A stretch of DNA of 20,122 nt from a virus (taxonomy: Duplodnaviria > Heunggongvirae > Uroviricota > Caudoviricetes), in the IMG/VR virus record IMGVR_UViG_2671181054_000001, positions 1-20,122 of that record; one strand, 5' to 3'. The number at the start of each line of letters is the position of its first letter. Position 1 is the first letter of the stretch. The position numbers and the translations under genes are program-made. Under the pieces are notes generated by a model. It made no database searches and was not told the DNA's origin. It worked only from the letters and a program-made list of their open reading frames with translations. Of this stretch, positions 6,208-19,578 are shown in pieces.

Positions 6208-8190
6208 TTAAGTAATTTCAGAGGTATCTATCACTTTCTCAGGAGTTGTAGATAACAATTCTTTCATACGCTGATCTTCGGGAGCACGAGAAGACAGGTG
6301 TTCTAAAAACTCACGCCATTGACGCTTTGCATCAGACAGAAGGTCATCCCAAGTTAATGTATACATTTCTTGTTCTCTCAATGTTTTCAGTTTCATATTT
6401 AACGTTGCATTTCTCTTTAAAAAATCATCAGCAACTAGATAACCGGAAACTCGCTTGAATGGACTTCCTGTTGCAGAGTCTAAATAAACTCTGAAAGTAT
6501 TAACATACTCCTCAAAGCGATTGATGTGATCTTTATCTATTTTCAGCCCTGGCCTCATGAATTCAAGTACAAGCAAATGTTCACCACTTGAAAGAACTAA
6601 GTCAACCCTTCCTTTAAAGCTTGGATCGTGTTCAATGTCTGATTCTTTTGCTGCTTCTCTAGCGATATGCTGGACATTTTTCTCAATAGCATAAGTCTCC
6701 CATTTTGGAGCTATCAGCCAAGGATTCTTCGCAATATAGTCTCGAACAGCATTTTCTAATTCTTTAGTGCGTATTCTAGTCTCAAGACCACTTATAGTAT
6801 CAAGCTTAGCTTTAACTGATTCTGCTGTGTGTAAAGCCTGAATTGTATTTGCTTCGATCAATATCTCAAGCAATTTCGTTTCATCCATATCAGGAACGGA
6901 AGCAACGCTTCTTATAAGCTCTTTTAGACGCCCTCCCTCCCATGCAGTGAGGATAGAGTTGCCTATATGCCTAAATTGCTCTGCACCGATTTGTTGGATT
7001 GATGCAATTCGTTTCAAAGCCATTATAACCGTTTTTTTCTCTACACCTAGTTTATCTAGCCTACTTCTGAAATCATCAATTTTACTTTCAATCAGTTTGG
7101 TTTTTTCATCTGCCCGCCGATCTTTCCAGATTTTTAATAATTCGCGAACACGTTTCTGTCCCCACTCTTCTAATTTGGCAAGGTGGTGACTACTCCAATT
7201 CAATCTTTGTCGTTCAGTAGAAATCACATCATCATTAAACTCATCCAAATAATCAGCAATTACAGCCCCTGTCATATATTCAGGACCATTTTGACTTGGC
7301 AACCCTCCAGTCAAGTTAAACATAAACGGCCTTTGTGCTAATTTTTTGTGAGCGTAAATCGAGATACCTTGCAACTCATCATCCTTGATTGTTTCTTTTA
7401 AGAAAAACACTCTCCATTTTATCTCATAACCATCAACGATTTCTTTTCCATACCCCAAACTGTCAATCTCCGTAAGAGAATCAGGTTTTTCATCTACAGT
7501 ATAATCTTTTGGAAAACTATATTCTGCAGTGGCAAGAAAATTTTCGACTGGCATGGGGGTATTATTAATACGAACTAAAAATTCATCGCCGCCAGAATTG
7601 ATCGCAAACCTTCTCGCCATAGATGTAGCAAAAGAAGACTCATTTAACAATCTATTTATTTTCAATGACTTAAGTGTTACTGTTGTTCCATGATTTTCTT
7701 TTTCTAATTCTGAAGGGCCTGTGCGGAAGGTCACATCAATAGCCATACTTTCAGTTTTAACGTAGTCATCTGACGATCTAATCTTATTTATATCCAAAGT
7801 AAAACTAGTTTTTTCACCTGTTTCTTGGCTAGTAGTACAAATTTCTATAATCTCAGCAATACCAAAACCAGCAAACTTTCCGATACCTTTTCTTCCCATT
7901 AAGTCTCGATTGAATAATTTCGACTTCGCTACAGGATTATCTTTCCTTTTATCAAAACCAACCGTAAGAAATTTCTTTTGACATTCTTCAAATGTCATTC
8001 CAATACCATTGTCTTTTATAACAATAGTTCTATTTTCATGCGTGGGTAGTGTAATATTAACTTCGGTTGCATCCGCGTCCCAAGCATTAGAAACCATTTC
8101 AGCTATTGCTGCTGTTGGACTTTGATACATTTGAATACCTAAATGATCAATTATCCTACCATGAAAATTTAGAAATAGTTTATTATCCAT
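6208..8190 (-). CDS. GHKL (Bergerat-fold) ATPase-domain protein, 660 aa, MORC/MutL-like N-terminus with uncharacterised C-terminal region; candidate restriction/defence effector
   Basis: N-terminal motifs AIAEMVSNAWDADATEV (N-box, E-x3-N-A-x-D), IKDNGIGMT (D-x-G-x-G), GRKGIGKFAGFG (G-rich lid). Start ATG has GAGG 6 nt upstream and overlaps the MTase stop by 8 nt. Confidence 0.85.
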   Translation of the reverse strand: MDNKLFLNFHGRIIDHLGIQMYQSPTAAIAEMVSNAWDADATEVNITLPTHENRTIVIKDNGIGMTFEECQKKFLTVGFDKRKDNPVAKSKLFNRDLMGRKGIGKFAGFGIAEIIEICTTSQETGEKTSFTLDINKIRSSDDYVKTESMAIDVTFRTGPSELEKENHGTTVTLKSLKINRLLNESSFATSMARRFAINSGGDEFLVRINNTPMPVENFLATAEYSFPKDYTVDEKPDSLTEIDSLGYGKEIVDGYEIKWRVFFLKETIKDDELQGISIYAHKKLAQRPFMFNLTGGLPSQNGPEYMTGAVIADYLDEFNDDVISTERQRLNWSSHHLAKLEEWGQKRVRELLKIWKDRRADEKTKLIESKIDDFRSRLDKLGVEKKTVIMALKRIASIQQIGAEQFRHIGNSILTAWEGGRLKELIRSVASVPDMDETKLLEILIEANTIQALHTAESVKAKLDTISGLETRIRTKELENAVRDYIAKNPWLIAPKWETYAIEKNVQHIAREAAKESDIEHDPSFKGRVDLVLSSGEHLLVLEFMRPGLKIDKDHINRFEEYVNTFRVYLDSATGSPFKRVSGYLVADDFLKRNATLNMKLKTLREQEMYTLTWDDLLSDAKRQWREFLEHLSSRAPEDQRMKELLSTTPEKVIDTSEIT

Positions 8191-9232
8191 AATCCGCCTC
8201 GTTTTTAGTTATATGTTCTTTGATAAGTTCAGCATGACGCTTAATGAATTCAGGGGGCAATGCATTCCCTATCATCAAAGCAGCCTTGTCTTTACCAAAT
8301 TGAATAGGAAAATAGTAATCACTCGGAAAAGTTTGTAATAATGCAGCCTCTCGAAGAGTTATTGCTCTATCTTGTTCAGGATGTAAAAAACGACCTTTTG
8401 AAGGATTAGTACATCCACTCGTAATAGTTGGAGCTACATCATCCCACCTCATACGACCGTAAACATCGCGAAAACCATTTGGATATCGTTTATGACATGG
8501 CAGCCAATACTCGTAAGGAAGTTGAGAGCGGCTTCCCCCATCCTTAGGAATAAGACTTATAATTTTTTTAACCTTCTCAGTTCTTCTTTCTAATATATTG
8601 TGCAGCGGATCATTGCTATTTTCAGGTCGAGCCAAATGGCCTATTGCATCGCGCACAGTTATTAAATTACTATTTTTTTGAGCACGAGTAAGCTCTCCGT
8701 ATCGCGAAGCAAGTAGTACCATGCGCTTACGTCTTTGTGGCACACCAAATTTACTAGCATCTTCAATTAAAACTGAATTATCATCGATATGATAACCCAA
8801 TTTCTTAAGCTCCGAAGTAAACATGTTTATTCGTTCGTCAAATGCCAAAGCTGGTACATTTTCAACCATTACAACTTTTGGAAAAAAGACTTTAACAAAA
8901 TCTAAAAAATTAAAAATAAGTTCATTTCTCTCATCAAAGACAGCTACTGTTTTATTTTTTGTTCTTAACGAAGAAAATCCTTGACATGGTGGACAACCTG
9001 CCAACAAATCCAGTTCACCTTGCTGAATTTTTAATTGTTTCATTAATTCATCTGGTGATATATTTTTTATATCCCCATTTATTAAGTTAACATCCGGATG
9101 GTTGATTCTATAGGTTTCAGATACAATAGCTTCTTTTTCGATTGCTGATATGACATCAAAGCCAGCCATTTTTAGACCAACTGTCAAACCACCAGCGCCA
9201 CAAAAAAGATCAATTGCTTTCATTTTATGCAT
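8183..9232 (-). CDS. DNA (cytosine-5)-methyltransferase, Dcm-type (349 aa)
   Basis: Canonical m5C MTase motifs: I DLFCGAGG, IV GCPPCQGFS, VI MVENVPAL, VIII QRRKR, X GNALPP. Start could be M1 (9232) or M4 (9223). Confidence 0.9.
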   Translation of the reverse strand: MHKMKAIDLFCGAGGLTVGLKMAGFDVISAIEKEAIVSETYRINHPDVNLINGDIKNISPDELMKQLKIQQGELDLLAGCPPCQGFSSLRTKNKTVAVFDERNELIFNFLDFVKVFFPKVVMVENVPALAFDERINMFTSELKKLGYHIDDNSVLIEDASKFGVPQRRKRMVLLASRYGELTRAQKNSNLITVRDAIGHLARPENSNDPLHNILERRTEKVKKIISLIPKDGGSRSQLPYEYWLPCHKRYPNGFRDVYGRMRWDDVAPTITSGCTNPSKGRFLHPEQDRAITLREAALLQTFPSDYYFPIQFGKDKAALMIGNALPPEFIKRHAELIKEHITKNEADYG

Positions 9233-9625: not shown

Positions 9626-10048
9626 TCACTGCGCCGCCCCCTGAAAATGCCCCTGATAGAATGCCAGCACACGCTGCATAACTTCGCTCTTCCGGCACTC
9701 GCGACAGATTATGTTCATACGCCTGTCATAGCGGCGTATTTCTCCGTCTGGTAATGACCAGATAAGGTCAGGATCAACCACAACCGTTTTTTTCACCTTT
9801 GCCCTGGATAGTTTTTTGCGGGCGTTTTTCCAGTCCTTACGAGCCTGTTCAGAGGGAAATAACCCATAGCCAGAGTTGTATACATCGCCACTGGCAACCA
9901 ACTCTCTGGCAAGAATGCTCATCAGATATCTTGTCGCACCTGTCTTGGCCTCCAGTTGCCTTAACGTCTCGCGCCCACTCTGGCGTACCAGCTCAACAAC
10001 CTGCTCCTTAATTTTTTCACGCTCTTCCTGTGTAAAAACTTTTGCCAT
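9626..10048 (-). CDS. Hypothetical phage protein, possible winged-helix DNA-binding protein (140 aa)
   Basis: Start at MAKVFTQEE with GGAGG 6 nt upstream; C-terminal CRECRK motif; no confident family. Confidence 0.5.
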   Translation of the reverse strand: MAKVFTQEEREKIKEQVVELVRQSGRETLRQLEAKTGATRYLMSILARELVASGDVYNSGYGLFPSEQARKDWKNARKKLSRAKVKKTVVVDPDLIWSLPDGEIRRYDRRMNIICRECRKSEVMQRVLAFYQGHFQGAAQ

Positions 10049-10063
10049 AAGCGCCTCCGGCAA

Positions 10064-10825
10064 TCACTTTTCCGACACAATACGACAGGAGGAGTCGACA
10101 ATCTGTCGAACAATATCCCGGTACTTGTTCAGCTCCCGCAGCGCGGCGCAGACACGCTCCCACTTCTGGACATGATTTTTCGCCCGGCGCAGCTCACGGT
10201 TTGCCATGTGCAGCGATGGTAAAATCATGTCATCCGCCCGCGTTTCGGTAAACGATGGCAGCGACTGCACAATGTCCGCCACAGTTTCTGTTTTAATATC
10301 TTCCTGTGTTGCATCTTTCTGTACCGGCAACGCAACACCTGCTGGCTGAGGAAAGGCTTTAAAATCAGTTTCCGTTACCGATGCAGCTTTCGGCTCTGCT
10401 GGTAAATTATTGCCCGGTATGCAGTAACGAAATTTACCGTTCTGATTTACGCGAATCAGGCGTCCTTTGCTGATTGCCATTGCCAGCGTTGAAGCAAGTT
10501 TGCGGGATGTGGTACCGAACAGCGTAGCTAGTTCATCCGCCGTTTGTGGTCCGCGTTGTTCAATCGTCGCGGTTAAATCGCACTCTGAGATTTTCGCTAC
10601 TGTTGCCGTGGTGGTTTCTTCCGGCAGTTCTGCCTGCATTGGCTGTTCCTGCTGAACGTTGTTATCAGCCACACGCCAGGTGTACGCGCTTTTATCAACG
10701 AAACCAGCTTTTTTCAGTTCCCATAGTTCGTTCAGCACTTCTTCACGACTGATATCAAGTCGCGCAGCAAGTTCTATGGATGTGGCTTTTCCCATTGCTT
10801 TCAGTGCGTCAAAAACAGTCTCCAT
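10064..10825 (-). CDS. Phage protein with N-terminal winged-helix-like domain (DUF1627-like, YdaW-like), about 254 aa
   Basis: Start at METVFDALK with GGGAGGA 8 nt upstream; position after DnaC-like gene as in Rac ydaV-ydaW. Family from memory. Confidence 0.5.
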
Positions 10826-10847
10826 TAAAATTTCCTCCCGATAAAAA

Positions 10848-11594
10848 TTACTTCGCAGTTCCTGGCTGGACGACATTCGGACGCCAGCTCTCCCAGTTAA
10901 AATTCACCCATCGCCCGCCGTTCATGGTCATGCGATCCATAATCCGCTCGCCGAGCAATGTTTTCATGGCCTCATAGTTCAGGTTTGTCAGCATCCCCAC
11001 GCTGCGCATCGACGCTGTCCGGCGATCAACAATCTGGTGCAGTACCACCTGCTCGTTTTTTGTCTCGCGCTGAATGCCAATTTCATCAAGAACCAGCAGA
11101 TCCACTTCGCACAGTTCCCGCAAAAATTTTTCGCCTGATTGCCCGTCGTCATAGCTGGCGTGTAGAGCACTCATGACATCAGCCACAGTAACCACAATCA
11201 CTGTCTGGCCATCTTTCAGCAGACGATTCCCGATAGCCGCCGCCAGATGGTTTTTTCCGGTACCAGGTTTTCCGCTGAACGCAAAATTTGTACACCCGGT
11301 CATCAGTTCATCAGCGATAGATTTCGCCTGGCTCAACGCGTATCGCTGACCGTCGTTCTGCACCTGGTAATTCGCAAACGAGCATTTACGGTGCAACGGC
11401 TGGATGCCTGAGCGATTCAGAATTTTTTCCACCCGCAACTGGCGATTCAGGCGGTTGATCTCCTCGCTACGTTTCTGGCCTTCAGCAAGTTGCCACTCGC
11501 GCCACTCCGCTACCGTTCTGAATGGGGCGGTTACATGTGGCGGGGTCAGTCGGCGGATGCGTTCCAGAACGCCGCCTGTCGCAATATTTTTCAT
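10848..11594 (-). CDS. DnaC/IstB-like AAA+ helicase loader (replication protein, YdaV-like)
   Basis: Walker [16 protein letters not shown] and Walker [10 protein letters not shown]; 248 aa. Confidence 0.85.
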
Positions 11595-11600
11595 GGTTCG

Positions 11601-12389
11601 TTACCCCCTGAAGCCTGGCGGGATCGCACTGTCCGGCAACGAGACGGTGTTAACCTGTCTGAGCAACGTCTCAGGCCTAACACCTTTCGGCGCGAACAAG
11701 CCCTGGTATTCATTGGCGATGCTATGTCGAATCACCTGCTCAGGGGTAAAACCCTGCTGGCGGAATTTTTCCAGTTCCCGTATCGCCCCGTTAGCGCCCT
11801 GCTCCGTTCGAATCGGTTTTCGCAATGCCTGCCTGAACCGGACCCACTCATGCCAGAGTGTTTCCGGCAACCAATCGGGCAACTCAATAGCCTCCGGCTC
11901 GAATTTTTTAGATGCTCGTTTTTGGCGAGGGGGATTTAGGGGGAGATCAGTATTTATATCTTCCTCTTCCTCTTCCTCTGGTAACGCTTTTTGATCCGTT
12001 TGTGTAACGCTGGCAGCGTTACCTTTTCGTTTCAGTTTGCGTATTTTTGTAACCCTCTCGTTTGTAATCGCCCGTTTTTTAGAGCTTTTTCCGTTATGAC
12101 GTTCAAAGTTAGGTAGAGAAAGCCCACCGTTATTTTCGACCAGCCATCCAACCTGAATTAACGCATCAGCAAAACCAGCCATAAAAGTGATGCGATCTAT
12201 TGCACTTTTTGTAACGCCGCGAGCGTTACACTCTGCGTTACCGTCTATCATTTGTTGATCCGCCCATGCCCAGAAGCGAATGACTTTCCCTAATGCGGCA
12301 TCTGGATCAATATTCAGAATCTCAGCAAGCCTGAATATTTCCGGCTTATCCGGCGTAATAACCTCGAGCTTTATCCAGTTTGAAGCCAT
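11601..12389 (-). CDS. Replication initiation-module protein (YdaU/DUF1376-like), about 262 aa, with poly-Glu linker
   Basis: Start at MASNWIKLEV with GGTGA 7 nt upstream; directly precedes DnaC-like loader; contains internal palindromic repeats. Confidence 0.55.
   Translation of the reverse strand: MASNWIKLEVITPDKPEIFRLAEILNIDPDAALGKVIRFWAWADQQMIDGNAECNARGVTKSAIDRITFMAGFADALIQVGWLVENNGGLSLPNFERHNGKSSKKRAITNERVTKIRKLKRKGNAASVTQTDQKALPEEEEEEDINTDLPLNPPRQKRASKKFEPEAIELPDWLPETLWHEWVRFRQALRKPIRTEQGANGAIRELEKFRQQGFTPEQVIRHSIANEYQGLFAPKGVRPETLLRQVNTVSLPDSAIPPGFRG
12004..12022. repeat. 19-bp palindrome GTAACGC-N5-GCGTTAC, copy 1 (inside replication gene)
   Basis: gtaacgc tggca gcgttac; exact 7-bp arms. 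Confidence 0.8.
12211..12229. repeat. 19-bp palindrome GTAACGC-N5-GCGTTAC, copy 2 (inside replication gene), followed by an extra GCGTTAC at 12235-12241
   Basis: gtaacgc cgcga gcgttac; exact 7-bp arms. Confidence 0.8.
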
Positions 12390-12403
12390 ATTGTTTTCAC
12401 CTT

Positions 12404-12422
12404 GTAACGCTGTAAGCGTTAC
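12404..12422. repeat. 19-bp palindrome GTAACGC-N5-GCGTTAC, copy 3 (intergenic, overlapping RBS region of replication gene)
   Basis: gtaacgc tgtaa gcgttac; exact 7-bp arms. Confidence 0.8.
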
Positions 12423-12467
12423 ATTTAACTGATACCGAACAAAACAGTCCGGCACGATTAATTTCAA

Positions 12468-12890
12468 TCAATGCACTACGACAGAATCGCCGGGCGACCC
12501 ACCGCCGCTGAAATATGCTTTACGGTAAACGGCCTGGACTGCATCATCATGCGCATCAATTGCCGTACTCAACGCTTCCTGCGCCGCCAGTAATGCACGG
12601 CGTTCCAGGGTATCGAAGATGCAGAGTCGGTGACGCAGCTCGCGCGGAAGAATTGCCAGAACCGCAGGGATCAGTTTCTGAATTTTTTCCCTTTGCGCTT
12701 TCGTTTCACCTTTCAACCAACGGTGATAGATATTCTGCTGATTGTTCCAGTCCTTGCCTGGTACCAGGGGCAATTCGCCGCCCCCCTGGCGCAGATATTC
12801 TTCAGTAATTGCGTTAGCAACCCACGCCTGCCCTTTTTCGGCTGCTAGGGCTAACAACACTGATTCGATGTGCTCATGCCTGATTTTCAT
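12468..12890 (-). CDS. YdaT-like (CII-like) early regulatory protein, 140 aa
   Basis: Second gene of the rightward early operon, ATGA-coupled to the Cro-like gene; size matches Rac YdaT as recalled. Confidence 0.55.
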   Translation of the reverse strand: MKIRHEHIESVLLALAAEKGQAWVANAITEEYLRQGGGELPLVPGKDWNNQQNIYHRWLKGETKAQREKIQKLIPAVLAILPRELRHRLCIFDTLERRALLAAQEALSTAIDAHDDAVQAVYRKAYFSGGGSPGDSVVVH

Positions 12891-13129
12891 GAATCAACCG
12901 CTCCTATGCTGTTTTCGCTATGCTTACCGTCTGGGGGGAATACATCGTCAAGTCCACAATGAGCACCAAGCCGATTAAGGGTGGAAACAATTTTTCTGCA
13001 CTCCTCTAGCCCAGGGGTACGAAAATTTGCTTCGTAATTTGCCAGTCGGCTTTGTATCCACCCTAGCTGAACAGCGAGTTGTCTTTGAGACAGACCAAGT
13101 TGTTTTCGATATGTTGAAATTTTGTTCAT
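12887..13129 (-). CDS. Cro/YdaS-like HTH (XRE-family) early regulator, 80 aa
   Basis: HTH LGLSQRQLAVQLGWIQSRLANYE; GGAGG 6 nt upstream of ATG; divergent from repressor gene. Confidence 0.7.
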   Translation of the reverse strand: MNKISTYRKQLGLSQRQLAVQLGWIQSRLANYEANFRTPGLEECRKIVSTLNRLGAHCGLDDVFPPDGKHSENSIGAVDS

Positions 13130-13225
13130 TAAAAACCTCCGACGACAATTTTAAACACACCTTGTGTTTTACGGTCAAGCTATTTTGTGTTTTATATAAA
13201 TCACGATTCGTGATACAAGGACGAA
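13130..13225. promoter_or_regulatory. Divergent promoter/operator region between Cro-like and repressor genes
   Basis: Palindrome AAACACA-cct-TGTGTTT at 13153-13169; 10-bp direct repeat TTGTGTTTTA at 13162-13171 and 13185-13194; palindrome ATCACGA-T-TCGTGAT at 13200-13214; minus-strand promoter candidate TTGACC - 17 bp - TTTAAA. Confidence 0.6.
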
Positions 13226-13645
13226 ATGGAAAAAGAAAACGAAAAAATTGCCGCTAGTAGGCTCAATGACAAAATTGCAATGCGTCTTAAAGAGCGCAGG
13301 CAGAAGCTTGGTTTATCTCAAGGAAAACTTGCTGAAATCTGCGGATGGACGCAATCGCGTATAGGTAACTATGAGGCGGGCAGCAGAAATGTTGGAGTGC
13401 ATGATGCTGTCGTCCTGGGAAAGGCGCTGGGCATATCTCCTCCTGAGCTCCTCTTTGGGGAAAAAGACTCTTCTGAATTGTGGTTAAATGAATCCCAACG
13501 AAAACTTCTTGAGTTGTTTAACCAGCTACCGGGCTCAGAACAACAACGAATGATTGAGCTATTTGAAGTCCGGCTAAAAGAAATCGACGAGTATGTAGAA
13601 AAATATTTGAGGGGCAGGCTTAAAGATACCCCCCCACCGGAGTAA
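13226..13645 (+). CDS. CI/RacR-like XRE-family HTH repressor without peptidase S24 domain (139 aa)
   Basis: HTH LGLSQGKLAEICGWTQSRIGNYEAG; AAGGA RBS; divergent from cro-like gene; followed by a strong terminator. Confidence 0.75.
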   Translation: MEKENEKIAASRLNDKIAMRLKERRQKLGLSQGKLAEICGWTQSRIGNYEAGSRNVGVHDAVVLGKALGISPPELLFGEKDSSELWLNESQRKLLELFNQLPGSEQQRMIELFEVRLKEIDEYVEKYLRGRLKDTPPPE

Positions 13646-13730: not shown

Positions 13731-13773
13731 AAACACACTTTGTGTTGACTTACAAAAACCATTTGTGTTTAAT
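13731..13773 (+). promoter_or_regulatory. pL-like promoter with overlapping operator for the leftward early operon
   Basis: Palindrome AAACACA-ctt-TGTGTTg at 13731-13747; TTGACT (13745-13750) - 17 bp - TTTAAT (13768-13773); half-site TTGTGTTTAA overlaps the -10. Confidence 0.4.
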
Positions 13774-15724: not shown

Positions 15725-18160
15725 ATGAGCACTGATAAAGAAGAAATTGCACTATATTACGAAGCCAAAAATGACAAAGTCAGAAAACGTCTTGGGATTA
15801 AAGGCGGTTTTTACTGGCGCACAGCAAAAAAATTATCGGTTGCAATATCACGCGGTGTTGTCGCAATGGACGATGCCGGATTTGACGAAGAGGATTTTAA
15901 AAAACCTGTTCGCGTCCATTTACCCGTTGTGAATGACCTTCCTCCGGAAGGCGTGTTTGATATCGAATTCTGCAACCGATACGAAAAAGGCGGGGAAGAT
16001 GGTATCACAATGGTACTTATCGCGCCCTCGCCCTCTGTTCAGGATAAACCAGCCAGCACTGACAATACCAACGTCAACGGCGAAGACCTGGCTGAGATTG
16101 AGGAGAACATGCTCCTGCCGGTTTCAGGTCAGATTCTGCCTGTTCGATGGCTGGCACAGCACGGCAGCGAAAAACCGATCACACACGTTTCGCGGGACGA
16201 ACTGCGCGCATTACATAACGCACAGGATGAAAAACTTCCCGCCGTTACCGCGCTGGCTATCTCAAATAAAGCAGCGCAACTCGAACCGCTGGAGATTCGC
16301 GATCTCCACAAACTGGTGCGAGACACTGACAAAGTTTTCCCCGCCCCCGTAAATTCGGACCTGGGACTGATAACCTCTTTTATCGAAGCATACCTGGACG
16401 CCGACTACACCGATCGCGGTCTGCTGACAAAAGAGTGGATGAAAGGAAATCGTGTTTCGCGTATCACCCGTACGGCTTCCGGTGCAAATGCCGGTGGCGG
16501 GAACAAAACCGATCGCAATCCGAATTTAGTACACACCTTCGATACGCTGGATGTGGAGATTGCAGCAGCCACACTTCCGATGGATTTTAATATTTATGAA
16601 ATTCCGGGCAGCGTTTATCGTCGCGCAAAAGAAATCGTCCTGAAAAGAGAAAGTCCGTTCAAAGAATGGTCCGCAGCACTTCGCGCAACCCCGGGTATTC
16701 TGGATTATTCCCGCGCCGCTATTTTTGCACTTATCCGGAGCACTCACCCTGAGTTTTATCACTACCCGGGACGCCTTCAGGGGTATATCAACGCCCACTT
16801 AACGGAGACTGATCACGAGAACCCCAGCAAGGAAACTCTCACTGCTGCACGACATACACCGGAAAAAGACATCCTGGAAGAAGTTAACCGCGAACTGGCT
16901 GCTGAACGCGAAACAGAAGAAGAAAAAAATAATGAGGAAAAATCACAACCGTCTGACGCAATGGCAGATGAACAGGCAACGACTGAAGCAATGGGACAGG
17001 ATACAACTGAATATCGCCAGGACACACAATCGCTGGATACTCAGGCACAGATAAATCCGGTTAATCAGGTAAAAGTTACCGCTGACGAAGTAAACAAAAT
17101 TATGCAGGCAGCCAATATCAACCAGCCTGATGCCGACAAAATACTGGCAGTCCATCGCGGTGAATTCGTTGACGGAATTAGCGACCCGAATGATCCGAAA
17201 TGGGTTAAGGGGATTGAAACCCGCAATTCTGTGAACCAGAACCAGCCCGAATCGGAACAAAACAGCCAAAATGCGTTACAAAACGAGCCAGAAACGAAAC
17301 AGCCTGAACCAGAAGAGCAACAAGAACCGGAAAAAGTCTGCACCGCCTGCGGTCAGACCGGCGGCGACAACTGTCCTGACTGTGGCGCGGTGATGGGCGA
17401 CGCAACATACCAGGAAACATTCGATGAAAAAAATCAGGCTGAAGTTCAGGAAGATGATCCGGAGGAAATGGAAGGCGCTGAACATCCACACAAGGAGAAC
17501 ACTGGCGGCAATCAGCATCACAATAGCGATAATGAAACTGGCGAGACGGCAGATCACTCAATTAAGGTGAACGGTCATCACGAAATCACATCCACCAGCA
17601 GGACGTGTGACCATCTAATGATCGACCTTGAAACCATGGGAAAAAATCCTGATGCCCCGATCATCTCAATAGGTGCAATATTTTTCGATCCGCAAACCGG
17701 AGATATGGGACCGGAATTTAGTAAGACTATCGATCTGGAAACTGCTGGCGGAGTCATTGATCGGGACACCATTAAATGGTGGCTTAAGCAATCACGCGAA
17801 GCGCAATCTGCCATTATGACCGATGAAATCCCGTTAGATGATGCACTACTGCAATTGCGGGAATTTATCGACGAAAACTCCGGTGAATTTTTTGTTCAGG
17901 TCTGGGGTAATGGGGCCAACTTCGACAACGTGATTTTACGCCGTTCATACGAACGACAGGGTATCCCCTGCCCGTGGCGCTACTGCAACGATCGCGATGT
18001 ACGCACAATCGTTGAGCTGGGGAAAGCCATAGACTTCGATGCCAGAACTGCTATCCCATTCGAAGGTGAGCGCCATAATGCACTTGATGACGCTCGTTAC
18101 CAGGCAAAATACGTTTCAGCTATCTGGCAAAAACTGATCCCGAGTCAGGCTGATTTTTAA
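15725..18160 (+). CDS. RecE-like (exonuclease VIII-like) large prophage protein whose C-terminal domain is a DEDDh (DnaQ-like) 3'-5' exonuclease fold; 811 aa
   Basis: N-terminal and middle regions resemble Rac RecE as I recall it (NTNVNGED..EIEENMLLP..RWLAQHGSEKP..THVSRD; GLLTKEWMKGNRVS.ITRTASGANAGGGN; Cys4 ribbon CTACGQTGGDNCPDCG). C-terminus has Exo I DLETMG, Exo II GNGANFD, Exo III HNALDDA. Confidence 0.7.
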   Translation: MSTDKEEIALYYEAKNDKVRKRLGIKGGFYWRTAKKLSVAISRGVVAMDDAGFDEEDFKKPVRVHLPVVNDLPPEGVFDIEFCNRYEKGGEDGITMVLIAPSPSVQDKPASTDNTNVNGEDLAEIEENMLLPVSGQILPVRWLAQHGSEKPITHVSRDELRALHNAQDEKLPAVTALAISNKAAQLEPLEIRDLHKLVRDTDKVFPAPVNSDLGLITSFIEAYLDADYTDRGLLTKEWMKGNRVSRITRTASGANAGGGNKTDRNPNLVHTFDTLDVEIAAATLPMDFNIYEIPGSVYRRAKEIVLKRESPFKEWSAALRATPGILDYSRAAIFALIRSTHPEFYHYPGRLQGYINAHLTETDHENPSKETLTAARHTPEKDILEEVNRELAAERETEEEKNNEEKSQPSDAMADEQATTEAMGQDTTEYRQDTQSLDTQAQINPVNQVKVTADEVNKIMQAANINQPDADKILAVHRGEFVDGISDPNDPKWVKGIETRNSVNQNQPESEQNSQNALQNEPETKQPEPEEQQEPEKVCTACGQTGGDNCPDCGAVMGDATYQETFDEKNQAEVQEDDPEEMEGAEHPHKENTGGNQHHNSDNETGETADHSIKVNGHHEITSTSRTCDHLMIDLETMGKNPDAPIISIGAIFFDPQTGDMGPEFSKTIDLETAGGVIDRDTIKWWLKQSREAQSAIMTDEIPLDDALLQLREFIDENSGEFFVQVWGNGANFDNVILRRSYERQGIPCPWRYCNDRDVRTIVELGKAIDFDARTAIPFEGERHNALDDARYQAKYVSAIWQKLIPSQADF

Positions 18161-18221: not shown

Positions 18222-18491
18222 ATGAGCGAACAGTACCTGATAACGCTCGATGAGTGGAAGCCAAAACGGTTCAGTCTCCCAATAACAAACACTACCCTGG
18301 TGAAATACGGAAAACTAGGATACATCGTTCCAAGACCACAAAAAATTCGTGGGCGTTGGCTGATAGATCGCCGAGCAGTATTTGTTGGACCTGGTGAAAC
18401 AGGAATTGCGCCGGAAATTCATACTGGCGATGATGATGCACTGAAGGAGATTTTAACTCATGTCACCGAGGCCACGAAAAAACAGCACTGA
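18222..18491 (+). CDS. xis: Excisionase-like protein (Xis), about 89 aa
   Basis: Small basic ORF immediately upstream of and overlapping integrase by 32 nt; GGAG 8 nt upstream of ATG. Call is positional. Confidence 0.5.
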   Translation: MSEQYLITLDEWKPKRFSLPITNTTLVKYGKLGYIVPRPQKIRGRWLIDRRAVFVGPGETGIAPEIHTGDDDALKEILTHVTEATKKQH

Positions 18492-19578
18492 CGTAGCCGG
18501 ACTTTACGAAAAATTTGATCGCAGAACTGGCAGAGTTTACTACCAGTATAAAAACCCTGTGACTGGAAAATTTCACGGGCTCGGAACAGACAAAGGTAAG
18601 GCAGAAAAAATCGCTTCCACAGCCAATCAGCGAATAGCTGCAGCAGAGGCTGAATATTTCATGCGCAAAATTGATGAAAGTCCGTCAGCAACAAAGCGTC
18701 GGGGTATCAGATTAAAGGCATGGGTTGATCGATATCTGAAAATACAGGACACGCGACTGAAAAATGGAGATATTGCAGCTACAACTCACAAAGAAAAAGC
18801 CCGAATGGCTGCATACCTGGTTTCCCGTCTGGGAAACCACCCATTGAAAGAACTGGAAGTAAGAGACTTTGCATTAATACTGGATGAGTGGCTGGATAAA
18901 GACATGGTCAGCACAGCGAGAGTAAATCGTGGATTATGGGTTGATATTTATAAAGAAGCACAGCATGCAGGGGAAGTTCCTCCTGGATGGAATCCTCCGG
19001 AGGCTACCCGTAAACCGATCCCTAAAGTAACTAGAGCCAGGCTCACCCTGGAAGACTGGCAAAAAATTTACAACGCAACGCCTGAAAAACACTTTATCCG
19101 TAACGCAATGCTTCTTGCGATTGTTACTGGTCAGCGCCGTGATGACATTTGCCACATGCGTTTTTCAGATGTGTGGAACGAACACTTGCATATCACCCAG
19201 GGAAAAACCGGAATGCGTCTGGCGTTACCGCTTACACTACGCTGTGATGCCATTGGGATAACGTTAAAAGAAGTTATTGATGGGTGCCGAGACAGAATAT
19301 TAAGTCCATATCTAATCCATAGTCGGCACCAGAAACAACCAAAGCCGATGAGTAAAGACAACCTGAGCGACTACTTTGCCAAAGCACGGGATCTGGCTGG
19401 GATAACTCCACCAGCAGGAAAAACTCCGCCAACATTTCATGAACAACGCTCCCTGTCAGAACGATTGTACCGCGCGCAGGGTATTGATACAAAAACATTA
19501 CTGGGACATAAAGTCCAGGCAACCACCGATCGTTATAACGATACTCGTGGTCAGGAATGGGTTAAATTGGTTGTTTGA
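18460..19578 (+). CDS. int: Lambda-family tyrosine integrase, 372 aa
   Basis: N-terminal arm-binding region resembles lambda Int (RDPRTGKEFGLG-like: YKNPVTGKFHGLG); C-terminal catalytic H-x-x-R (HEQRSL) and Tyr motif (TTDRYNDTRGQEW, cf. lambda ASQYRDDRGREW). Confidence 0.9.
   Translation: MSPRPRKNSTDVAGLYEKFDRRTGRVYYQYKNPVTGKFHGLGTDKGKAEKIASTANQRIAAAEAEYFMRKIDESPSATKRRGIRLKAWVDRYLKIQDTRLKNGDIAATTHKEKARMAAYLVSRLGNHPLKELEVRDFALILDEWLDKDMVSTARVNRGLWVDIYKEAQHAGEVPPGWNPPEATRKPIPKVTRARLTLEDWQKIYNATPEKHFIRNAMLLAIVTGQRRDDICHMRFSDVWNEHLHITQGKTGMRLALPLTLRCDAIGITLKEVIDGCRDRILSPYLIHSRHQKQPKPMSKDNLSDYFAKARDLAGITPPAGKTPPTFHEQRSLSERLYRAQGIDTKTLLGHKVQATTDRYNDTRGQEWVKLVV

Follow-up and report, generated by a model that had tools for sequence, protein, structure and literature searches.

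The window, by which we mean the whole 20,122-nt stretch of DNA analysed here (positions 1 to 20,122 of the Caudoviricetes record IMGVR_UViG_2671181054_000001), carries three exact copies of the palindrome GTAACGC-N5-GCGTTAC, two inside the gene for a phage replication initiator and one just upstream of it. We conclude that these palindromes, together with two isolated half-sites and a polypurine AT-rich tract, are likely to form the replication origin of a prophage, located in and just upstream of the initiator gene, a conclusion drawn from comparative sequence evidence. Coordinates are those of the window, and the replication genes are read on its minus strand. The initiator gene and the elements in and around it are as follows.

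11601–12389, minus strand: initiator gene, 262 aa, with its ATG at 12387–12389
12404–12422, dyad: site U, GTAACGC-TTACA-GCGTTAC on the coding strand, 33 nt upstream of the ATG
12235–12241, minus strand: extra left half-site GTAACGC, 5 nt ahead of site A
12211–12229, dyad: site A, codons 54–60, encoding C-N-A-R-G-V-T
12004–12022, dyad: site B, codons 123–129, encoding G-N-A-A-S-V-T
11981–11987, minus strand: right half-site GCGTTAC, 16 nt past site B, read as GCG TTA CC and encoding A-L-P
11951–11979, minus strand: polypurine AT-rich tract, candidate DNA-unwinding element, composed of AGAGGAAGAGGAAGAGGAAGA (11959–11979) and TATAAATA (11951–11958)

The original prediction had described three exact 19-bp palindromes at about 200-bp spacing, two of them within the initiator coding sequence and one just upstream, and isolated half-sites at 11981–11987 and 12235–12241. 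The palindromes are present at exactly those coordinates relative to the minus-strand gene, with centre-to-centre distances of 193 bp (U to A) and 207 bp (A to B), and both half-sites were found. The prediction that one palindrome overlaps the ribosome-binding site of the initiator had to be corrected, because site U abuts the Shine-Dalgarno (SD) sequence AAGGTGA (12397–12403) within the 77-bp gap between the upstream gene ydaT and the initiator gene. On the coding strand, the order is site U, SD, ATG, extra half-site, site A, site B, half-site, a single C, and the polypurine tract, which begins with a 21-nt run of pure purine (AGAGGAAGAGGAAGAGGAAGA) and continues as TATAAATA.

The palindromes are not a product of chance, in agreement with the original prediction. 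A count of three was reached in none of 100 dinucleotide-preserving shuffles, and the 20-kb window contains no further copy with 0–1 mismatch, the next-best match having 2 mismatches. The 7-mer GTAACGC occurs 12 times in the window compared to 1.9 expected, and 8 of the 12 occurrences fall inside the 440 bp from 11981 to 12422. Nor is the motif common elsewhere, given that half-sites occur at a background of 0.23 per kb in the flanking DNA of 80 genomes (187 kb). The shuffles, this background and the reverse scan described below rule out chance or a genome-wide motif as the explanation. The half-site at 12235–12241 originated in a 12-nt duplication (GGT AAC GCA GAG / TGT AAC GCT CGC) that adds the residues ECNA, a four-residue insert in the alignment with other members of the family. 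Site A encodes a surface loop of the N-terminal domain (N-domain) of the initiator, in which residues 54–57 have a predicted local distance difference test score (pLDDT) below 50 in an AlphaFold2 model, and site B encodes the disordered inter-domain linker, also with pLDDT below 50. Because the elements are confined to these two parts of the gene, the protein tolerates them. A degenerate half-site, GGGTTAC, with one mismatch to GCGTTAC, is located 26 nt upstream of site B (12049–12055, minus strand).

In the reverse scan, the exact pattern was compared with viral contigs, and a hidden Markov model of the N-domain was run on the six-frame open reading frames of the matched stretches. At least 120 stretches with an exact palindrome were recovered. 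Among the matches listed, 100 of 120 lay in or beside a homologue of the N-domain, the palindromes fell only at offsets of −32 to −44, +148 to +165 and +337 to +441 from codon 1, and each of the 52 stretches that had two or three palindromes had them in an N-domain gene. Several of the 20 misses were at locus edges, and one (L107) came from a contig that does carry the gene.

We also sampled 80 species-representative genomes, selected by N-terminal peptides located outside the motif; the sample includes Pseudomonas, Planctomycetota, Verrucomicrobiota/Akkermansia and Enterobacterales. Site A was present within 2 mismatches in 73 of the 80 species and site B in 70. Matches in the upstream region were at background level, save for 8 enterobacterial loci, and site U at −32 to −44 was limited to enterobacterial members (8/80 species). 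In 67 distinct close relatives, site U was present within 1 mismatch in 59, and the arms were exact in 53 for U, 66 for A and 62 for B, with 13 different spacers for U and 13–14 per site overall. The N-domain was also found at 42–70% identity in phages of Klebsiella, E. coli (TL-2011b, HEMP4), Xylella/Xanthomonas, Ralstonia and Pseudomonas, which have other C-termini and other neighbours, yet carry the palindrome at both in-gene positions. Genomes of Planctomycetota (Roseiconus, Novipirellula, Stieleria), Verrucomicrobiota and Akkermansia contain N-domain homologues with both palindromes as well (loci L219, L224, L235/L236, L257, L274, L275, L287 and L289). The host range is unusually wide for one conserved DNA recognition sequence. 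As judged from the genomes compared, the palindromes travel with the N-terminal domain of the initiator.

The codons used at the sites depart from those used elsewhere in the same genes. In site A, glycine is encoded by GGT in 64 of 64 cases (23% elsewhere), valine by GTT in 71 of 77 (29% elsewhere) and asparagine by AAC in 73 of 73 (66% elsewhere), and the fifth codon reads xGC in 70 of 77 cases, whichever amino acid it encodes (S, T, G, N, R or H). Site B is in reading frame 0, 1 or 2 depending on the lineage, so that the peptide is GNAASVT here and VTLAALQ or VTPTALQ in the Klebsiella and TL-2011b phages. These patterns indicate that the sites are under selection at the level of DNA, beyond the peptide. 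A purely coding constraint is ruled out by the synonymous-codon and frame evidence.

The variants of the motif are coordinated between sites. Across 164 sites, TAACG (half-site positions 2–6) is 94–100% conserved. In locus L287, all four half-sites read GTCACGC; in L289, three read GTGACGC and the fourth GTGACGT; and in L267 and L280, a position-3 variant is common to three of the four half-sites. A Vibrio phage has GTCAC-N9-GTGAC at both sites, and the clade of epsilon15, SPN1S and BUCT711, at 27–33% identity, has GTCCGC-N7-GCGGAC in the same layout. Because the variants are coordinated at separate sites, a common trans-acting reader is implied, and the sole gene common to these genomes is the initiator N-domain itself. 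Arms that are constant and spacers that are free suggest the signature of a binding protein rather than that of a stem.

This distinction bears on the possibility that the palindromes work as hairpins instead of duplex binding sites, either in the ydaT-ydaU mRNA, where they would affect its stability, processing or translation, or as extruded cruciforms or single-strand hairpins. Each site can form a hairpin of 7–9 bp, the RNA of the gap folds better than its shuffles (z = −3.7), and the hairpin of site U is just 5′ of a free SD. However, the outermost pairs are broken in 65 of the 164 sites and the innermost in 43, with compensation in only 3 and 1, respectively, while TAACG is nearly invariant. 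A hairpin acting in cis would not require sites A and B of one genome to have rare variants in common, isolated half-sites are conserved too, and the whole window gave no Rfam match at the gathering threshold. We regard a hairpin function as having a very low probability. A separate 9-bp hairpin, GUGCCGGAC-UGUUUU-GUUCGGUAU, is located at 12431–12455 (minus strand), between the ydaT stop codon and site U; it is not followed by a run of T and is therefore not an obvious terminator.

The DNA downstream of site B has further constrained features. A half-site NCGTTAC follows site B in 56 of 70 family loci, and the gap between the two is 4–5, 16 or 28 nt only, in steps of 12 (family loci L215–L294; 16 in the window). 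The 12-nt steps, along with the 12-nt duplication at site A, suggest expansion by units of 12 nt, or four codons. The leucine in this half-site, which is read as GCG TTA CC, is encoded by TTA in 55 of 55 cases compared to 9.5% elsewhere in the same genes. The base that follows the half-site is an invariant C, after which about 27 aligned columns are essentially without C. From +30 to +50 relative to site B, the purine fraction is 0.83 and the AT fraction 0.67, compared to backgrounds of 0.52 and 0.42. In the 30 codons past site B, arginine is encoded by AGA in 96 of 160 cases compared to 59 of 1054 elsewhere. The rare codons AGA and TTA are used even in GC-rich hosts. The equivalent in the epsilon15 clade is GCGGAC-C-AGAGAAGAGAAGAGAAGAGAAGA, which comes after sites of the GTCCGC type.

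It is conceivable that the conserved DNA is a by-product of the peptides (GNAxxVT, ALPEEE/REEKRRE), or a recombination “boundary sequence” for the shuffling of N- and C-terminal modules, with no protein binding. Site A does overlap the conserved peptide DGNAxxVT, and the mosaic joint between the N- and C-terminal modules is right past the polypurine tract. Such an origin of the conservation nevertheless appears quite improbable to us: synonymous positions are fixed, the DNA of site B is constant while it encodes VTLAALQ, VTPTALQ or GNAASVT in different frames, the AGA and TTA codons persist where the host is GC-rich, and neither coding nor recombination linkers explain the concerted changes across four half-sites.

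The original prediction had named two candidate binders, the initiator and YdaT, the CII-like product of the upstream gene. For the initiator, the evidence points to likely binding, in that the motif tracks the N-domain across phyla, shows codon bias and frame-independent conservation, and adjoins an AT-rich polypurine tract. In favour of YdaT, its gene is directly upstream of the initiator gene, and the protein is described as a tetramer that binds DNA at inverted repeats (PMC9986795, PMC11879457). However, the two characterised YdaT homologues, 30% identical to one another, bind TTGATT/ATGATT-N6-AATCAA over the ydaT start codon (PMC11879457, PMC9986795). The palindromes fail the pattern TTGATT-N6-AATCAA, whereas a box with one mismatch to it, TTGATT-N6-AATCAG, is located over the ydaT start in the window, at 12880–12897. 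Moreover, the palindromes are present without ydaT in the phages of Klebsiella, Xylella, Ralstonia and Pseudomonas and in Planctomycetota prophages, and the K-12 Rac prophage has ydaT and no palindrome. The second candidate is thus so improbable that we give it almost no weight. The YdaT-box at 12880–12897 parallels those of K-12 Rac and CP-933P. A degenerate box with 2 mismatches is located at 12454–12471, over the ydaT stop codon and about 35 nt before site U, and the total of YdaT-box-like matches in the window is not above chance.

A different use of the same DNA contacts would be regulatory, with the palindromes serving as operators for the control of ydaU-ydaV transcription or translation by the initiator or another repressor, and not as origin sites. 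Operators, too, typically have dyad symmetry and a free spacer, and site U is directly 5′ of the SD of the initiator. Initiators, such as the Rep proteins of plasmids, often autoregulate. Against this, a consensus scan of 11500–13400 found no sigma70-like promoter, the universally kept sites are the two in-gene ones, site U being present only in an enterobacterial subclade, and operators would leave the half-site and the AT-rich polypurine tract with its rare codons unexplained. We therefore regard operators as an unlikely explanation of the palindromes. The more specific proposal of autoregulation through the ribosome-binding site is unsupported, given the same absence of a promoter in the scan, the restriction of site U to an enterobacterial subclade, and its position beside the SD instead of over it; site U could still have a secondary regulatory role.

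Several observations weigh against the origin reading. Two of the three sites are inside DNA that encodes the N-domain, so that some of the co-occurrence with this domain is due to physical linkage, and it is codon use, reading frame and covariation that carry the argument. The compared sequences share descent, so that Fisher p-values overstate their independence, despite amino-acid identities down to 40–65% across phyla and a GC content of the gene that ranges from 0.42 to 0.64. The sites are dispersed (A to B 189–264 bp, median 207), with no strict helical phasing and no tandem iteron array. The searchable literature contains no binding, unwinding or replication experiment on this initiator family, and no description of the motif or the origin, including the literature on Rac oriJ, DUF1376 and epsilon15 replication.

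From the elements, the conservation of their DNA, their association with the N-domain and the homologies of the domains, all of which are observed, we infer how initiation might proceed. Dimers of the winged-helix-like N-domain would bind each 19-bp dyad, with each monomer reading a TAACG core at a fixed spacing and with no demand on the sequence of the spacer. Site B and the downstream half-site would seat the initiator beside the polypurine AT-rich tract, which would melt and act as the unwinding element. Site A, about 207 bp upstream of B, would add initiator dimers, as would site U, a further 193 bp upstream, in enterobacterial members, and the added dimers would probably cooperate by looping or wrapping over about 400 bp in a complex similar to the lambda “O-some”. 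The DnaT-like C-terminal domain of the initiator and the DnaC-like YdaV would then recruit host DnaB and load it at the melted tract. Involvement of host DnaA or IHF was set aside, as no DnaA box or IHF consensus was found in the region.

We suggest, more tentatively and with somewhat less than even confidence, that the window belongs to an undescribed class of phage and prophage origins found across phyla. This class would be defined by a winged-helix initiator that has no Pfam family (at least 6,500 clusters), by two dyads with a nearly invariant TAACG core placed about 200 bp apart so that they bracket the DNA of the initiator's own DNA-binding domain, and by the melting of a linker-encoded polypurine tract with rare AGA codons. 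If this is true, a simple grammar would suffice to predict the origins of thousands of prophages from sequence, in hosts that range from Enterobacteria to Planctomycetota and Akkermansia: site A as a dyad about 200 bp upstream, followed by the core at site B, which is made up of a dyad, a half-site, a C and a polypurine tract. The dispersed, “split-site” geometry would also mean that the initiation complex is looped or wrapped, in contrast to the tandem O-some of lambda. The coding sequence is a clear example of dual coding, with rare codons and frame-independent conservation imposed on it by the DNA element. A lambda-style origin inside the initiator gene is textbook knowledge; what is new is the family-wide, cross-phylum grammar and the evidence for dual coding.

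The domains of the initiator are as follows.

12090–12389, minus strand: winged-helix-like N-terminal domain, approximately residues 1–100
minus strand: disordered linker, approximately residues 100–160
11604–11882, minus strand: DnaT-C-like C-terminal domain, residues 170–262

The full-length protein matches phrog_2509, “replication initiation protein” (E = 3.5e-89), and residues 4–131 match phrog_9474, which has the same annotation (E = 1.9e-26). No Pfam match was obtained for the whole initiator at E values up to 0.01 or for N-domains at E values up to 10, and searches of PDB and Pfam with the N-domain sequence gave no meaningful match. The N-domain was matched by 6,584 cluster representatives (50% identity) at E ≤ 1e-3; a homologue search with a 122-residue N-terminal fragment gave mostly truncated proteins. 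The AlphaFold2 model, built from 32 homologues, has N-domain helices at residues 16–25, 29–48, 61–68 and 73–80 and a beta-hairpin at 84–91, with N-domain pLDDT of 75–91. Loop 49–60 is of low confidence, the linker at 97–159 is disordered, and the C-terminal domain is confident. The structural matches of the N-domain model are mostly winged-helix DNA binders, and in this model the fold of the N-domain appears winged-helix-like.

The protein is modular, as tblastn against phage genomes gave different relatives for residues 1 to about 135 and about 120 to 262. The C-terminal part is common to K-12 YdaU, Gifsy-1 O and other “O-like” phage proteins. Residues 170–262 align with DnaT 92–179, including the terminal NTVSxPDSxIPPGFRG, in which the PPGFRG terminus is identical, and phmmer with the C-terminal domain matched 2ru8 (E = 9.5e-5) and 9zbt (E = 3.2e-4). 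DnaT itself differs in that it has no origin-binding N-domain. Many E. coli and Salmonella proteins of 374–380 aa share approximately their first 150 residues with the initiator at about 95% identity and have a different and longer C-terminus; the mosaic joint in these proteins is just past the polypurine tract.

In its function, the arrangement looks like a lambda-type origin inside an initiator gene, as far as its sequence can be compared, in a family outside both lambda O and DUF1376. The original prediction had likened the in-gene sites to the iterons inside lambda O. The likeness holds for the presence of two dyads inside the coding sequence and fails for their arrangement, as the sites are dispersed at about 200 bp and do not form a tandem array. 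In lambda, as here, the origin elements are inside the initiator gene in linker-encoding DNA, and the repeats are dyads of 18–19 bp with a spacer of about 5 nt (TCCCTC-N5/6-GAGGGA in lambda). The four lambda iterons are followed by ACAAAAGACACTATTACAAAAGAAAAAAGAAAAGATTATT on the O coding strand, so that an AT-rich, purine-rich tract lies within tens of base pairs in both cases; site B with its half-site corresponds in position to the iterons, and the polypurine tract to the AT-rich region. In lambdoid origins, the N-domain and its sites are exchangeable while the AT-rich tract and the C-terminal module are common, as is also the case here. In Gifsy-1 O, for example, GGGATAGTTATCCC repeats and an AT/purine-rich stretch precede “DLTPFNPPKGK...”, and the same C-terminal module here begins with “DLPLNPPRQK...”.

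The arrangement also differs from that of lambda. The lambda iterons are four tandem repeats about 20–24 bp apart, whereas here one dyad and a half-site are placed by the tract and another dyad is about 200 bp upstream; unlike in lambda, enteric members alone have a third dyad upstream of the gene. The N-domain of lambda O is unrelated in sequence (BLASTP E = 1.3), the tract here is a strict polypurine run, and the loader is a DnaC-like YdaV instead of P. The TAACG core is kept across phyla, whereas the motifs of the lambdoid origins compared vary, from the lambda sequence given above to GGGATA-GT-TATCCC in Gifsy-1. The lambda-type traits found here are thus in-gene dyad repeats and an adjoining strand-asymmetric AT-rich region; a tandem iteron array and an N-domain of the O family were not found.

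Another known system close to this one is the YdaU-YdaV module of the K-12 Rac prophage, which has the same succession of repressor, cro-like gene, ydaT, initiator and ydaV, a nearly identical C-terminus of about 115 residues, and the same loader. It differs in having a DUF1376-type N-domain, no GTAACGC palindrome, and a 12-bp gap instead of 77 bp. The DUF1376 (PF07120) N-domain is absent from the initiator according to Pfam, and the K-12 YdaU N-terminus cannot be aligned with it; the initiator is therefore not a DUF1376 protein, despite the “YdaU family” name given to one copy by the Prokaryotic Genome Annotation Pipeline (PGAP). In the clade of the window, this label reflects the common C-terminal module and not the DNA-binding domain.

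Two further systems share parts of the arrangement. In DopC/DopE, a DnaT-C domain is paired with a gene for an IstB/DnaC-like ATPase, as here, and DopC has a lambda-O-type helix-turn-helix (HTH) N-terminus, with no iterons found at its locus by the authors (PMC5509034). In iteron plasmids (RepE, TrfA, Pi), a winged-helix initiator binds repeated sites beside an AT-rich DNA-unwinding element (DUE), as is proposed here for the winged-helix-like N-domain. They differ in that their repeats are direct, bound by monomers and usually accompanied by DnaA boxes, whereas those in the window are inverted and the region has neither DnaA box nor IHF consensus. Plasmid Rep proteins are also reported to contact one strand of the DUE (PMC4081077), a contact that may parallel the half-site abutting the polypurine strand.

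The genes around the initiator gene form a Rac-type lambdoid prophage module, listed here in the order of their coordinates.

9626–10063, minus strand: DUF977 gene
10064–10876, minus strand: DUF1627 gene
10848–11594, minus strand: ydaV, DnaC-like helicase loader, directly downstream of the initiator gene
12468–12890, minus strand: ydaT, upstream of the initiator gene
12887–13129, minus strand: Cro-like HTH gene
13226–13645, plus strand: HTH repressor gene

The initiator gene, ydaT and their neighbours are on the minus strand, and the HTH repressor gene is the only plus-strand gene listed. The ydaV product matches NCBIfam PRK12377 (3.5e-153) and DnaC PRK07952 (2.4e-91), with Pfam matches to IstB_IS21 and Bac_DnaA. 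Many E. coli chromosomes carry the module at 97% identity or above, as does phage vB_EcoS-673R7, in which the initiator gene is annotated as “DNA replication protein O”; one RefSeq record names the initiator “phage replication initiator YdaU family protein”.

A second palindrome, AACACA-N3-TGTGTT, occurs in two exact copies, at 13154–13168, between the divergent cro-like and repressor genes, and at 13732–13746, just beyond the 3′ end of the repressor gene; two copies were reached in none of 100 shuffles. The pair look like OR/OL-like operators flanking the repressor. At the other side of the module, downstream of the replication genes, a gene for a 660-aa GHKL/HATPase_c_3 protein (6208–8190) overlaps a gene for a C-5 cytosine DNA methyltransferase (8183–9232). 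The close relative L001 carries queH and hok/gef at roughly the same position, which suggests that the GHKL/methyltransferase pair is exchanged cargo; it may be a defence or restriction-like pair linked to a methylase. Cytosine methyltransferase genes recur beside the initiator gene in epsilon15 (L012), Vibrio phage 1.211.A (L010) and BUCT711 (L006), which are otherwise different phages, in addition to that in the window. That the palindromes are targets of a methyltransferase appears less plausible, as, among the loci whose annotation was examined, L002, L003, L005, L008 and L011 have the palindrome and no annotated methylase nearby. A bipartite 7-N5-7 dyad is also unlike the typical site of a C5-methylase. 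Beyond the repressor, an 811-aa RecE-like protein (15725–18160) has an Exonuc_VIII region at its N-terminus and, at its C-terminus, a domain of the Rv2179c-like 3′-5′ exoribonuclease fold. It is followed by an integrase gene at 18460–19578, and the window therefore nears one end of the prophage.

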